Below, in pieces: positions 1 through 5,414 of a DNA stretch of 64,000 bases; the first letter of the stretch is position 1, and each line of letters begins with the position of its first letter. The stretch is from positions 1-64,000 of IMG/VR virus record IMGVR_UViG_3300028797_000104; one strand, written 5' to 3'. The DNA is from a virus. Taxonomy: Duplodnaviria > Caudoviricetes. Both the position numbers and the translations under genes were made by a program. The notes under the pieces were generated by a model. It saw only the letters and a program-made list of their open reading frames with translations. It did not search any database and had not been told where the DNA came from.

Positions 1-131
1 GAGTAGAATCTAAGTAGATTCAAAGCGCGTAGGTTCCTATAAACGGTAATAGAATATAGGAATATGATATAGTCTGTTCTATATAGTGATGTATAGAGAT
101 CAAATGGAAACGATTTGGTCGTAACATAAAG
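1..131 (+). mobile_element. Group I intron 1 of the capsid gene (3' part only)
   Basis: S element GATATAGTCTG, P9 hairpins and the AACATAAAG end shared with the other introns; the exon frame resumes at 132. Confidence 0.85.
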
Positions 132-3100
132 ATCGCAAATGATTTGGTTATAGTTCATCCTATGACTTCAATGTCTGGATATCAAATGTAAGGTATCCCT
201 TCTATAGTAATATAGATGAAAAAATACCAAGTGAATTGCTGGAAACTCCTTTTAAGAAAGGACAATCAGCAGCCAAGTATAAGTTTAATTATATTTTCGT
301 CATTTTTTATAATTTAAACTTATAAAGGTTCAGAGACTATCGAAAACATATATAAGAAGAAAAATCTTATAAAAGAAGTGAGTAGAGTACATCTTAAAAA
401 GATGGAAGCGCTTGGCATCTTATAAAGGATAAAACAATATAAGATGATGATATAGTCCGAACTTATCAGCAATGATAAGAATTTAATAGAAATATTAAGA
501 ATAACATAATTGATTACATACATTGAATACTTAGCCGGAAAGGCAAAAGGGGCAACAAGTCAGGGTGACTTATTTAATAGCCCATTCAAACTGGGAAATG
601 TTGATCCAAACTATACTGCTGACAGAGTAGTAGAAGCAGCTGCATCAGGCACTGGTGCTCAGGCATTAGCATGGACTCCAATCGTTCATGGTGCTATTCG
701 TTACAATAATGTTGATTATGACGTTAAGTTAGTAAAAGCTGGAGCCTCTGACATCTATGGTTTCTATAAGGATGCAGATAAGAAGTTCTATTCTGATGCA
801 GCTTATACAACTCAGATTAATGTTGCTTCTGATACTAAAGTAGCGTACGTTTATGACAACATTGTGGTACCATAGAACGATTTACCAACTCTGAAAGCTG
901 AAATGAAGAGCATTCCTCTGATTGCTCGCGCACGTAGAATTGCCGTATACTACTCACAAATTGCGGCATTCCAGGCAAAGACTGATTATGGGTTTGACCT
1001 TGGGGATTAGTTAGCAGAGAAAGCTGTTGGTCAGTTAAGCTATAAAAATTTTGTAGCATAATACAGTGATGTATTATTAAAAACTTCGTGAATTCATGGA
1101 AAACCTTATAAGAGTTTGTATCGCTTATATGGCAATCATGATCTAAGCTTTATAATTTAAAATAGAACATTATAATTATATTTTTGATTATAATGTAGGA
1201 CAGCATCGACGGATGTTTTCATAGAACTCCAATTTTTATGAATTACTACATTTAATATATTATTATTTTATTGATTGGAGAAATAAAATGTACGGATATA
1301 TTTATAAGACTACCGATAAGAAAACTGGTAAAATATATATTGGATAGCATCATGCACCTATATTTGAAGGATATAAATATTTGGGTAGCGGGTTAGTTAT
1401 TTCAAATATTAAAAATAAACTTTAGGAAGAAAATATTAATCTTGAATCGAGATTTGATATAGAAATGCTTGATACTGCTGAATCAAAGTTTGAATTAAAT
1501 GAGAAAGAAATTTATTGGATAAATAAATTAAATTCGAGAGATCCGGATATAGGATACAATATTTGTAAAGGTGGAGAAGCGGGTCCTGGAGGTCCGATGA
1601 TGTTAGGTCATAAGCACTCTAAAGAAACGAAAAGAAAAATGAGTGAAAATAGATCGGGGTCAAAAAATTCAAACTATGGAAATAGATGGCATCAATCAGA
1701 TGAATTAAAAGCATTACATAGTATTTTATCAGCAGGTAGTAATAATGGAATGTATGGTAAGAAGCATTCAACCGAATCAAAAAATAAAAATAGAGAATCC
1801 CATCTTGGTAAATTTGCTATATCTAATATTGAATTAGATAAAGTCATCATGGTAACAGAATCTGAATCTATTGAATATTTTAATAATGGTTGGATAAAAG
1901 GAAACATACATTGTAAAAGAGATTATAAAGAAAGAGCAACGACTATCGAAAGTATAGGTTAAGAGAAATATTTAACCAAATAAATGAGTAGAGTAGAACT
2001 TAAGTAAGTTCGAAGCGCGAAGCGTCTTATGTTTGGTAATAGAATATAAGATGATGATATAGTCTAATCTATAATGAATAAATAAATTATAGAGAATATA
2101 TGGAAACGATATATTCGTAATGAAAATGGAAATTGATACAGAAGTTGTAGAGCTTCTTGATAGCACTGCTGGTGCTGCATAGACTGACCTTCAGTGGTCA
2201 AAGACTCTCCCAGTTGGCGTTAACTACAAATTAGTTGTTTAAATTTGCGAGCGCCAACTTTAAAAAACCACATGAATTGCTGGGAAATCAATTAAAAATA
2301 GTTGACAATCAGCAGCGAAGTCCATATAATATAATATGGAAACGTTCAACGACTATCGAAAGTATAAACTAAAAGAAATATTTAGTTGAATAAACGAGTA
2401 GAGTAGGACTCAAATGAGTTCGAAGCATGTGGAATTTACTAAAGGATAAAACAATAGTAAATTATGATATAGTCTGAACTATATGGTAACATATAGAAAA
2501 TATTTTGAGAAAATTAAATATTCTTACATTTATAAATTTAATTAATGTTTATAAATGTGGGAATGAAATAAAATAATTTTCAATGAAATATTTGTAACAT
2601 AATTGAAGCAAGCAAGAACATTATCAAGGATTTATGGAAATCGTAGAAATTGGTCGCCAGTTAATTTATGATCGTACCAAGAGATTCAGCCCCAATTACA
2701 TGGTATGTGCTTCTAACCTGATTCCAGTATTAAGCTTCATTAATGGTTGGACACCTGCACCTGCAGGACAGGTTAATGGCCCATATTTCGCAGGTTAAAT
2801 AAATGAAAAATTTATTGTATATAATTATATGATAGGACAGCAGGTTGCAAACTGTTTTCAATACCTTGCTTTATTGGATTACTATCAAATATAATTTTTT
2901 ATCTTGCAAGGAGATATAACAAATGAATAAATAGGAAATAATTAATTATTATAGTATACATTCAACTAAGCAAACTTTGGAAAAGTTTAATTTATCTCGT
3001 CGTTAGTTATATAAAATACTTGATGAATTTAACATTGAGCATCATTCCCAAAAATTTAATATGAGTATTGATGGTAACGGTTTTAAAAGGAAAAAAGATT

Positions 3101-5414
3101 AGGAATTTAAACAATTATTAGATACAATAGACATTAATGAATTTTATGAATATTATCTTACTCACGCAAAAAAATATACTGCTATTAAATATAATATAAC
3201 GGAATCTAAAGTAGGATAGATTTTAGACCATTATAATTTAAAGCATTTAACCGCGTAGCAAGCATTAAATAATATTTATATTATTGAATATGGATCTATT
3301 GAGAATGGTAGACAAATTACTCATGGATCTACTATAAATAAGTTAAATTCAGAAGAATCTAAATAGAAACGAATTAATACGTGCATTGAAAAATATGGTG
3401 GACCTTCTCCTTTTTCCTCAAAAGAAATTTAGGATAAACGTAATAAAACGGTTCAGGATAAATATGGAGTATCTAATGTATCAAAATTAGATACGGTTAA
3501 AAATAAAATTAAATTAACGCATGAATCGCGCTATGGTGGAATTGGATGGGCAAGTGATAGTGGAATGACTAAATATAAAGAAACCCTTATGGAAAAATAT
3601 GGGGTTGAATATGCTTGCCAATTACCTCAATGTATAAATGCAAATCATGGATGTAATTCTGGACCTAATACTAACTTCGAGAATTTATGTAATGATAATA
3701 ATTTAATTATTGATAATAAAGAATTTGTTATTAATAATTTTCGATATGATTTTAAAATTGGAAATGTTTTAATAGAAATTAATCCGTCTTATTCCCATAA
3801 TTCAACTTTTGGATTTAAAAATACCGTTGATCCTTTAAATAAAGATTATCATTATAATAAATCTAAAATTGCTATTAATAATGGCTATAGATGTATTCAT
3901 GTATGGGATTGGGATGATCCATACAAAATAATTCAGTTATTAAAATCTAAAGAAAAAATATTTGCAAGAAAATGCCAAATAAAAGAAGTACCAAAAGAAG
4001 AAACCATTTATTTTATAAATAAATATCATTTATAGAATTATATTAAAGATGATATTAGAATTGGTTTATATTATGAAAACGAACTTATTTCTATAATGAC
4101 TTTCGGAAAACCAAGATATAATAAAAAGCACCAATATGAACTTCTTAGATATTGTTCATCAAAAAATATAATTGGAGGAGCGGAAAAATTATTTTCTTAT
4201 TTTATAGAAAAATATAACCCCGATTCAATTATCAGTTACTGCGATAAAAGTAAGTTCATAGGTAATGTTTATAAAAAACTTAATTTTATTAGTCAAGGTG
4301 AACCAAGACCCACAAGACACTGGTACAATATAAAAACAAAAAAACATATAACTGATAATCTTTTAAGACAAAGAGGATTTGATTAGTTATTTGGTACTAA
4401 TTATGGTAAAGGTACTAATAATGAATAGCTAATGTTAGAAAATGGGTTTATAGAAATATATGATTGTGGTCAAGAAACTTTTATTTGGAAAAATATATGA
4501 ATTTTTCTGTATAGCCTGGCTATACAGTGATGTATAGAATAATAAATGACTCTAATTGCTGGGAAGTCTTTAGAGCTTTAACTACTACAACATAGATTGA
4601 AAAGTCAAATGTGAAAGTTTAAAAAAGTTAAAGATTAGATAATCAGCAGCTAAGTTCCTAAAAATAATAAATTTAAGGAAAAAGTTCAACGACTATTCCT
4701 CCCAAAGAGGAAGTAGGTTCTAAGTAGAATCGAAACGGGTCACGTCTTATTAAAGACGAAGATATAGTCTGTACACATATGAAAGTATGTGCTTGGATAT
4801 TCCAAGATATAAAAGTAACGATTTTATATAAACATAATAGACACTTGGAGCGCTGAAAGTTTATGTATCTCCTGCTATGGCAGCTGGTAGATATATCATT
4901 GGCGTCAATGGTGACGATATGATGAGCTCCGTTAAACAATTAGCGGCATAAATAAGAAATTGTTTATGAAAACCTCGTGAACTCATGGAAAATCTTAATA
5001 TTTAAGGGCATAATATTAAGACAATCATGATCTAAGACTTAATAAAATTAAAGAAAGATGATATAAATTTATTAAGTAAAGAGCAACGACTATCGAAAGA
5101 CTTATCAAAAAGAAATATTTTGAATAAGAATCAAGTAGAGTAGATTTCAAGTGAAATCGAAGTGCGAGGAACCTTTAAAAGGATAAAACAATTAAAGGTT
5201 ATGATATAGTCTGAACTCCATAGTGATATGGAGAGAATAAATGGAAACGATTTATTTGTAACATAATTGAGCAGTGTATGCCCCGTACATGGCGATAGTC
5301 CCGACTCAGCTTCTCCAATATGCAGATGGTGGAACTAGCTAGGGATGGAGCACCCTTTACGATCTAAAGGTGCTTAATGCCGATCTGGTGGTAGCTGGAG
5401 AAATTGTAGCATAA
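132..5414 (+). CDS. Major capsid protein (T4 gp23-like), 5'-partial, spliced; exons 132-182, 513-1043, 2129-2220, 2606-2795, 4841-4932, 5270-5414
   Basis: Joining the exons at U.G-defined 5' sites and terminal-G 3' sites gives one frame: IANDLVIVHPMTSMSGY|ITYIEY...IARARRIAVYYS...LAEKAVGQLSY|EIDTEVVELL...PVGV|SKQEH...TKRFSPNYMVCASN...YFAG|TLGALKVYVSP...SSV|AVYAPYM...STLYDL. This matches gp23-family motifs (vQPM, LaxEI..EInrE, GtL..rykVY, YaPY). Needs TAG=Gln. Confidence 0.92.
183..512 (+). mobile_element. Group I intron 2 of the capsid gene (no ORF)
   Basis: P1 GGAUAU/GUAUCC with U.G at the splice site; core elements AATTGCTGGAAA, AATCAGCAG, GTTCAGAGACTA, GATATAGTCC; ends in G512. Confidence 0.9.
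1192..1280 (+). promoter_or_regulatory. Structured RNA leader with SD-pairing loop, copy 1
   Basis: Outer stem AAUGUAG/CUACAUU, two inner hairpins, and loop CUCCAAU complementary to AUUGGAG (SD, 1274-1280). A covarying copy lies at 2830-2913. Confidence 0.6.
1288..1962 (+). CDS. GIY-YIG homing endonuclease with NUMOD3 repeats
   Basis: MYGYIYKTT...KIYIG(TAG=Q)H...YLGSG...E.YWI...GYNI, followed by GHKHSKETKRKMS and GMYGKKHS repeats; in frame with track ORF 1465-1962. Confidence 0.9.
2221..2605 (+). mobile_element. Group I intron 4 of the capsid gene (no ORF)
   Basis: P1 GUUGGCGU/GCGCCAAC; core AATTGCTGGGAA, AATCAGCAG, GTTCAACGACTA, GATATAGTCTG; splicing rebuilds the Val codon GT|A. Confidence 0.9.
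2830..2913 (+). promoter_or_regulatory. Structured RNA leader with SD-pairing loop, copy 2
   Basis: Outer stem UGAUAG/CUAUCA, inner hairpins AGCAG/CUGUU and CAAUA/UAUUG, and loop CCUUGC complementary to GCAAGG(AG) at the SD. Confidence 0.6.
2923..4500 (+). CDS. Intron-encoded homing endonuclease (KYG repeats, Vsr/DUF559-like PD-(D/E)xK domain, Hef-like C-terminal domain)
   Basis: One frame with TAG=Q. EKYGGPSPF, DKYGVSNVS and EKYGVEYA repeats; RYDFKIGNVLIEIN; NGYRCIHVWDWD; MTFGKPRYNK..YELLRYCS..IIGGAEKLF. Confidence 0.8.
4933..5269 (+). mobile_element. Group I intron 6 of the capsid gene (no ORF)
   Basis: P1 CCGU/GCGG; core GAACTCATGGAAA, AATCATGA, GAGCAACGACTA, GATATAGTCTG; splicing rebuilds the Val codon GT|A. 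Confidence 0.9.

Follow-up and report, generated by a model that had tools for sequence, protein, structure and literature searches.

A portable three-way-junction leader RNA upstream of phage homing endonuclease genes, probably a translational brake

Both endonuclease genes that can be detected in the genome of an uncultured phage are headed by the same small leader RNA. The phage is known from a 151-kb IMG/VR record, IMGVR_UViG_3300028797_000104, of which positions 1 to 64,000 were analysed here (this whole stretch is called the window). The leader is a real, portable, covarying three-way-junction RNA family, which is widespread and uncatalogued, and its third loop is complementary to the Shine-Dalgarno (SD) site of the very gene that it precedes. 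Homing endonucleases are selfish and potentially harmful, and what is known of how phages tolerate them comes mainly from T4. We regard the leader as probably a cis-acting translational brake, moved from gene to gene, which would keep production of the nuclease low.

The leader as an RNA family

Each copy in the window is a three-way junction of about 58 nucleotides (nt), whose elements follow one another in the order P1, GAC, P2, P3, UUA and P1'.

1192 to 1252, plus strand: leader copy 1, three-way junction, with P1 at 1192-1198/1246-1252, J1/2 GAC at 1199-1201, P2 at 1202-1207/1212-1217 (loop GACG), P3 at 1218-1223(1226)/(1234)1237-1242, and J3/1 UUA at 1243-1245
2830 to 2887, plus strand: leader copy 2, three-way junction, with P1 at 2830-2835/2882-2887, J1/2 GAC at 2836-2838, P2 at 2839-2843/2852-2856, P3 at 2857-2863/2872-2878, and J3/1 UUA at 2879-2881

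With the elements set apart by hyphens and the loops in brackets, copy 1 reads AAUGUAG-GAC-AGCAUC(GACG)GAUGUU-UUCAUA(GAACUCCAAUUUU)UAUGAA-UUA-CUACAUU, and copy 2 reads UGAUAG-GAC-AGCAG(GUUGCAAA)CUGUU-UUCAAUA(CCUUGCUU)UAUUGGA-UUA-CUAUCA. Loop 2 of copy 2 is palindromic (G-UUGCAA-A, 2844-2851). An initial annotation, made from the letters of this DNA without database searches, had proposed that one covarying fold stands at both places, and it was right in this point: every helix that it named is present at 1192-1252 and 2830-2887, and the differences between the copies are compensatory. The pattern common to both, TAGGACAGCA-N-TGTTTTCA, occurs twice, against no occurrence in 100 shuffles, and RNAfold gives the same three-way junction for both copies, with a z-score of -3.95 for copy 1 and -1.07 for copy 2.

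Does the fold exist beyond this phage? The family was assembled from covariance models together with a scan with a 23-nt core pattern, over contigs of viruses, metagenomes and metagenome-assembled genomes (MAGs). The model R1 was built from copy 2 and two copies from another phage, L033; a second model is called R2. A loose scan of IMG/VR with a 16-base pattern had given more than 100 matches, all but one of them due to chance; the one is L033, whose phage holds two further copies. When two whole phage genomes were searched with R1, two copies per genome and nothing else came out, copy 1 being found at 35 bits, and the same model added about 12 distinct copies from 80 loci around homologs of the capsid gene. 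Copy 1 scores 35.3 bits with R1, which was built without it, and 48.1 bits with R2, while copy 2 scores 80.4 bits. About 75 distinct copies are now known, on contigs of uncultured phages, metagenomes and MAGs. Thus the further homologs upstream of open reading frames (ORFs), for which a covariance-model search of phages had been suggested, do exist.

The helices of this family are conserved as pairs rather than as sequences. In an alignment of 13 sequences 97.4% of the cells are paired and 15 of the 18 pairs are altered on both sides, a result that none of 500 shuffles reaches, and the signal is destroyed if the pair partners are slid by one to three columns as a control. With 72 distinct sequences the corresponding values are 95.8% and 16 of 18, again equalled by no shuffle, and RNAalifold independently returns the three-way junction. 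What stays invariant is the closing G:C of P1, the GAC, the first two pairs of P2 (A:U and G:U), the first pair of P3 (U:A), and the UUA. The G:U pair in P2, which is kept in 71 of 72 sequences, assigns the function to the sense RNA strand. P2 directly adjoins P3 with zero bases between them. The two helices are probably stacked coaxially, so that loops 2 and 3 would face away from each other.

The leader is not a named motif, as had been suspected. No Rfam 15 family matches it, whether at the gathering threshold or at E <= 10, and over 1000-3000 or 2822-2930 nothing credible for the leader appears at E <= 10; full-text literature searches found no published description of it. One parallel by kind is int-alpA (RF02996), which is also a small structured RNA of phages and mobile elements, and an orphan candidate without a tested function. 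From its family name we take int-alpA to adjoin integrase or alpA genes of prophages and satellites, whereas the leader, here and in the relatives examined, adjoins homing endonuclease or small HTH genes. With the Rfam model of int-alpA (gathering score 35.8 bits), this genome and one relative (G000 and G001) gave no match at E <= 10, nor did copy 2 when its 109 nt were searched alone; five further phage genomes, and 14 loci that carry the leader, yielded none at E <= 1. The two RNAs are set apart here by model scores, their consensus structures not having been compared. A peripheral domain of a group I intron was considered too and rejected: the leader models match only the two ORF-bearing sites of the genome, the four ORF-less introns lack it, and many copies head free-standing genes. 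Neither an intron peripheral domain nor an Rfam family, the two matches that were to be checked for, was thus found.

Some copies look like remnants. At L033:10746-10915 a complete-looking leader lies in the 3' part of a group I intron and is followed by an ORF of only 24 amino acids, and its loop 3 has no match left to a Shine-Dalgarno site; what remains resembles a scar left behind when an endonuclease gene was lost. At L253:7336-7392, L297:10147-10203 and L303:2426-2482, P2, loop 2 and half of P3 are kept, while the UUA junction and the closure of P1 are lost and the sequence runs into coding-like sequence. These three are probably decayed or recombined copies.

Loop 3, the Shine-Dalgarno site and the proposed brake

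Downstream of each junction there is another hairpin, P4, which holds the ribosome-binding region of the nuclease gene.

1264 to 1290, plus strand: P4 hairpin of copy 1, with stem 1264-1272/1282-1290, which takes in the AUG at 1288-1290, and loop GAUUGGAGA
2900 to 2916, plus strand: P4 hairpin of copy 2, with stem UAUCUU/GAGAUA, the Shine-Dalgarno GGAG being divided between the loop and the 3' strand

That loop 3 can pair with each Shine-Dalgarno site had been noticed before, and the complementarity is exact in both copies. In copy 1 the anti-SD sequence CUCCAAU of loop 3 (1227-1233) matches AUUGGAG (1274-1280) in the P4 loop, and in copy 2 CCUUGC (2864-2869) matches GCAAGG (2906-2911); both targets overlap the GGAG that lies 5' of the ATG (at 1288 and 2923, respectively). 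The P4 hairpin, and the palindromic nature of loop 2 throughout the family, had no part in the earlier account. In copy 2 the palindrome UUGCAA of loop 2 recurs in the P4 loop region (CUUGCAAGG; 2844-2851 and 2904-2909). Loop 2 of this copy might therefore compete with loop 3 for the P4 site, but other copies do not have the recurrence, and it is probably a coincidence.

The same relation holds throughout the family. Among 65 distinct loops, 88% have a perfect complement of at least 6 nt in their own downstream 60 nt, compared with 10% when the downstream regions of other copies are used, and there are 52 distinct targets; none of 10000 permutations equals the observed mean. Loop 3 consists of CC or CUCC, resembling the anti-SD of 16S rRNA, followed by four to five gene-specific bases, and the target consists of the complement of those bases plus the first Gs of the SD. 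The target site lies about 16 nt downstream of the junction and takes in the GG of the Shine-Dalgarno site; between its end and the ATG there are mostly 5-10 nt. In most copies it is enclosed by a P4 stem of 4-10 base pairs (bp), with a mean of 5.4 bp for the cognate targets against 3.8 bp (0 of 5000 permutations), and the 3' strand of P4 holds the remainder of the SD, in copy 1 together with the AUG. Since the target is displayed in the loop of P4, the contact would be a loop-loop one and the ribosome site would be covered twice. No complementarity was found between loop 2 and its own downstream region.

Where would transcripts carrying the leader begin? A TATAAT at or just before the 5' end of each copy had been reported, and the boxes are indeed there, as read in the sequence.

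1171 to 1176, plus strand: TATAAT box 16 nt upstream of leader copy 1, which alone among the three has a weak -35 partner
1189 to 1194, plus strand: second TATAAT box, which overlaps the first 3 nt of P1 of copy 1
2820 to 2825, plus strand: TATAAT box 4 nt upstream of leader copy 2

Their standing as promoters is another matter, since a sigma-70 scan of 1000-3000 that includes the -35 box finds no more promoter-like sites than expected by chance, and it is the family-wide enrichment of the -10 box that carries the claim. A perfect TATAAT ending between 3 nt inside P1 and 12 nt before it is found in 27 of 73 copies, against 6 and 3 copies in the next two upstream intervals of equal length; a test for matches to five of the six -10 positions shows no enrichment, so that only the perfect box is enriched. 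These counts support a promoter with a -10 box only, from which transcription would begin at P1 or close to it. The box ends mostly 4-12 nt 5' of P1, and overlaps P1 in 6 of 73 copies, copy 1 among them; as it lies mostly upstream of P1, the whole junction would be transcribed.

From these features a mechanism can be proposed. Each intron-borne nuclease gene would carry a portable cassette made of a -10-type box, the junction leader and the P4 hairpin, the last of which would follow after an AU-rich linker of 9-40 nt and would show the 5' half of the SD in its loop while the rest, in copy 1 with the AUG, is buried in the stem. Loop 3, by mimicking the anti-SD of 16S rRNA, would form a kissing helix of 6-8 bp with the P4 loop, and this helix would block binding of the 30S subunit, so that the nuclease is translated at a low level. 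Such a brake would protect both the phage and its host from excess nuclease, and in the intron copies it would in addition prevent ribosomes from occupying an RNA whose folding and splicing are needed to remove it from a heavily expressed capsid message. Lowered translation through this pairing, a transcript start at P1, and any role for the invariant junction or for the palindromic loop 2 are inferences.

If the brake works in this way, one scaffold is re-addressed to each gene by altering four to five loop bases, a widespread, sequence-conserved and modular solution in uncultured phages of gut and rumen, and the leader would be a natural, programmable translational damper. The compact 58-nt junction with its target hairpin offers a test object for loop-loop translational control and for possible RNA dimerisation, and the leader can serve as an annotation marker for mobile nuclease cassettes in metagenomic phage genomes. 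It is also relevant to the survival of group I introns with ORFs in the late gene whose expression is highest.

Several points weigh against this picture. Copy 2 alone folds no better than shuffles (RNAfold z-score -1.07), and the folding tools that were used cannot score a loop-loop helix of 6-8 bp. The 23-nt core pattern served to fetch many of the copies, so that P2 and loop 2 are biased, and the pairs were counted in alignments that had been fitted to the model. Nor does a phage need the leader in order to carry an endonuclease gene, since about half of these genes lack it in five complete related genomes. A plain anti-SD hairpin would suffice for the purpose, and a brake leaves about 12 invariant junction bases and the palindromic loop 2 unexplained. 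These conserved parts hint at an extra layer, be it a ligand, a protein or dimerisation.

Known systems and rival readings

Control of phage endonucleases by RNA is not new in itself. RNA structures that sequester the ribosome-binding site control I-TevI, I-TevII, I-TevIII, segB and mobE of phage Aeh1 (PMC2988022). The leader resembles these T-even hairpins (PMC2988022) in being a cis-acting RNA upstream of an intron-borne or free-standing phage endonuclease gene that occludes the SD, with a -10-type promoter nearby, and also in its presumed purpose, namely that a harmful nuclease is kept low and intron splicing is spared. In build the two are different. The T-even hairpins are simple and local and share no common sequence family, and a late promoter inside the hairpin lets late transcripts escape repression. 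The leader, instead, is a conserved junction with invariant bases that delivers an anti-SD to the loop of a second hairpin 9-40 nt away; in most copies the promoter box precedes the entire structure, and the scaffold is common to at least three nuclease superfamilies in many phages. An SD base-paired in a conserved RNA structure, as in the T-even cases, is present in the leader according to comparative evidence (the co-variation of loop 3 with the SD, and the P4 stem), while a promoter inside the inhibitory structure is absent from most copies; with the promoter upstream of the structure, the escape used in T4 via a late promoter is inapplicable to most copies. A known kind of job would be done in a new way, with the logic of the T-even hairpins and a different build.

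Is the leader, rather than a brake, a switch that responds to a signal? Riboswitches of the SAM-II, preQ1-II/III and guanidine-III classes act on translation by covering the Shine-Dalgarno site with a pseudoknot. The leader is similar to them in its compact, aptamer-sized fold, its invariant unpaired bases and its long-range pairing over the SD, and the initial annotation had called it a portable three-way-junction translational switch that gates the nuclease. Much of this stands: the RNA is real, portable and covarying, it occurs with unrelated endonuclease genes inside and outside introns, and loop 3 co-varies with its own SD. The switching part does not follow. As a switch, the invariant junction (G-GAC-AG...UU-U...A-UUA-C) would bind a small molecule or a protein of phage or host and thereby set the access of loop 3 to the SD loop, so that nuclease synthesis is gated by the signal. 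That the junction bases remain invariant while all three stems drift by compensatory change fits this, as does the general likeness of a junction with a distal pseudoknot over the SD to translational riboswitches. However, no conserved, mutually exclusive pairing was found, and the search for a second loop-3 target or an upstream complement gave only scattered AT-rich 5-mers at no consistent position. The controlled genes, selfish nucleases of several families and small HTH genes, suggest no ligand and offer no metabolic context, no Rfam riboswitch matches, the anti-SD is individualised for each gene, and the junction might be conserved purely to aim P3 at P4. We hold a regulated switch to be quite unlikely, and a constitutive brake accounts for the data no less well.

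The palindromic loop 2 raises a different idea, which would extend the brake model rather than replace it: two leaders might pair through loop 2 as a kissing-loop homodimer, and repression or RNA decay would then depend on the amount of that message. The dimerisation site of HIV-1 is a kissing-loop homodimer formed via a palindromic loop. The leader shares with it, and with kissing-loop complexes, a 6-nt palindrome in a purine-flanked loop (G-UUGCAA-A), in which swaps from GC to CG keep self-complementarity, but it sits in the 5' region of a phage mRNA, its palindrome is weak in copy 1, and its dimerisation is hypothetical. A 6-nt palindrome is present in 7 of 11 distinct loop-2 sequences and one of at least 4 nt in 10 of 11, against only 1 of 66 in loop 3 and none of 20000 shuffles; the forms are UUGCAA, UUCGAA, UCGCGA, UAGCUA, UCAUGA and AUAUAU-type. 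Although the 23-nt pattern allowed GG, CC, GC or CG at the centre of loop 2, all 36 of the viral matches listed have GC or CG, and among all distinct copies, genome and metagenome loci included, the loops of this type are only GUUCGAAA (35) and GUUGCAAA (29). Moreover, the central 4 nt cannot pair within one hairpin. On the other side, GC and CG loops dominate owing to the fetching method, and UUCGA and UUGCA could also form a T-loop-like turn. A self-complementary 6-nt loop that is kept through change holds for copy 2, whereas copy 1 is the weakest case, with a GACG tetraloop on a longer stem and UCGA only across stem and loop. A homodimer is possible, but rather doubtful.

It might even be that the parts belong together as a self-addressed RNA device, in which a factor-binding junction core is combined with a gene-specific anti-SD loop and with a palindromic loop through which two molecules of one message pair. 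We offer this as an unlikely but interesting proposal. If true, synthesis of a selfish nuclease would depend on the dosage of message or of phage genomes (or on a signal) during infection, and to our knowledge no such dosage-sensing kissing-dimer translational switch has been described for phage or bacterial mRNAs.

Two further explanations were weighed. The leader might serve to stabilise or process the 5' end. It could do so as a protective stem-junction, as a site for RNase, or as a small ribozyme that cleaves itself and releases the nuclease mRNA from the pre-mRNA of the capsid gene; its match to the SD would then be of secondary importance. With a TATAAT just before P1, P1 would base-pair the 5' end, and a junction with invariant unpaired bases recalls small ribozymes in general. 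But the strongest signal of the family is the gene-specific co-variation of loop 3 with the SD, for which such an element has no need, and no Rfam ribozyme family is found at E <= 10; this makes the explanation very unlikely. Alternatively, the sequence could act as DNA, as an operator, a recombination site or a cassette boundary, or it could be a mere recent duplication without function. P2 with loop 2 is a near-perfect inverted repeat at the DNA level, and I-TevI binds an operator over its own promoter (PMC2988022). Against this stand the G:U pair kept in 71 of 72 sequences at one position of P2, the compensatory changes in 16 of 18 pairs, the position of the copies, every one of which is on the coding strand and 5' of an ORF, and the existence of about 75 diverged copies across many contigs. 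Both forms of this explanation are scarcely credible. Hammerhead or other ribozyme classes, a tRNA-like fold, an S15-type protein site, a terminator and a DNA operator were likewise considered and dropped.

Genes, introns and phages around the leader

The two nucleases of the window and the introns in which they reside are as follows.

1041 to 2125 (approximate boundaries), plus strand: group I intron with leader 1 and nuclease 1, bounded by exon alignment (exons 510-1040 and about 2126-2190), with a partial gpI match at 2024-2090 and core elements read in the sequence
1288 to 1962, plus strand: homing endonuclease 1, GIY-YIG with NUMOD3, 224 amino acids, in L8 of the group I intron, its 3' end running into the intron core
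2796 to 4840 (approximate boundaries), plus strand: group I intron with leader 2 and nuclease 2, placed by exon alignment and by the Rfam intron core at 4503-4791
2923 to 4500, plus strand: homing endonuclease 2, 525 amino acids, HTH and DUF7487 with a Vsr/PD-(D/E)xK-like part, in L1 of the group I intron

The proposal that nucleases of different families sit in different intron loops agrees with this assignment of GIY-YIG/NUMOD3 to L8 (about 1041-2125) and of HTH with DUF7487 to L1 (about 2796-4840). In the intron of nuclease 2 the ORF lies between the 5' splice site, near 2795, and the guide sequence with the core, which begin at about 4503.

The variety is greater in the family as a whole. 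ORFs headed by the leader encode several types of GIY-YIG proteins, HNH_3 with NUMOD4, DUF7487 with DUF559- or Vsr-like parts, small HTH_36 proteins, and some proteins without a family, so that the leader is associated with at least three nuclease superfamilies. Copies are located in intron loops, after the stop codon of a capsid gene (L033) and within an array of tRNA genes (L234). The last of these, L234:1-4700, is a phage contig with a tmRNA gene, about ten tRNA genes and Y-RNA-like matches, among which a leader-headed HNH endonuclease is inserted. In L240, L236, L241, L245 and L257 (for example, L240:11085-11146) the leaders head HTH_36 proteins of about 105 amino acids; there the loop-3 target lies over GAGGUAC, and there is no P4 stem. 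Those endonuclease genes of the five complete relatives that have no leader adjoin an upstream ORF and have a strong SD, which suggests that they are translated as part of an operon. Homologs of nuclease 2 at L122-L146 have no leader either, the closest ones having a plain promoter and an SD; the leader thus tracks a phage lineage or a cassette and not a protein family.

Both leader copies of the window lie inside one gene. A major-capsid-type gene occupies the first 5.4 kb of the window in pieces, with exons at about 105-182, 510-1040, 2126-2190, 2607-2795, 4841-4930 and 5271-5411, and is split within this distance (1-5411) by six group I introns, one of which is truncated at the start of the window. 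Endonuclease ORFs lie inside two of the six, and the other four are ORF-less. Rfam 15 finds only four matches at the gathering threshold in the whole window, all of them group I introns (173-479, 2189-2496, 4503-4791 and 4923-5233). Six introns in one phage gene is an unusually high load.

As to the phage itself, TAG is a sense codon, probably read as Q, and occurs in frame 10 times in nuclease 2, twice in nuclease 1 and twice in the capsid exon 510-1061; some related phages that bear the leader have no in-frame TAG. A scan for tRNA genes found none within the 64-kb window. Neither a relative of the capsid exons nor leader-like DNA was found among GenBank phages, so that no cultured phage is at hand. 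The MAG bins in which leader copies occur belong mostly to Clostridia and other Bacillota from gut or rumen samples, and because binning of phage contigs is unreliable, the host can be called Bacillota only as a probability.

A last observation concerns nuclease 2. Its C-terminal third (residues 352-402, positions 3976-4128 of the window) has a sub-threshold match to the Pfam family Mom, at 24.1 bits against a cut-off of 27.1, and a domain like those of DNA modification may thus be fused to this homing endonuclease.

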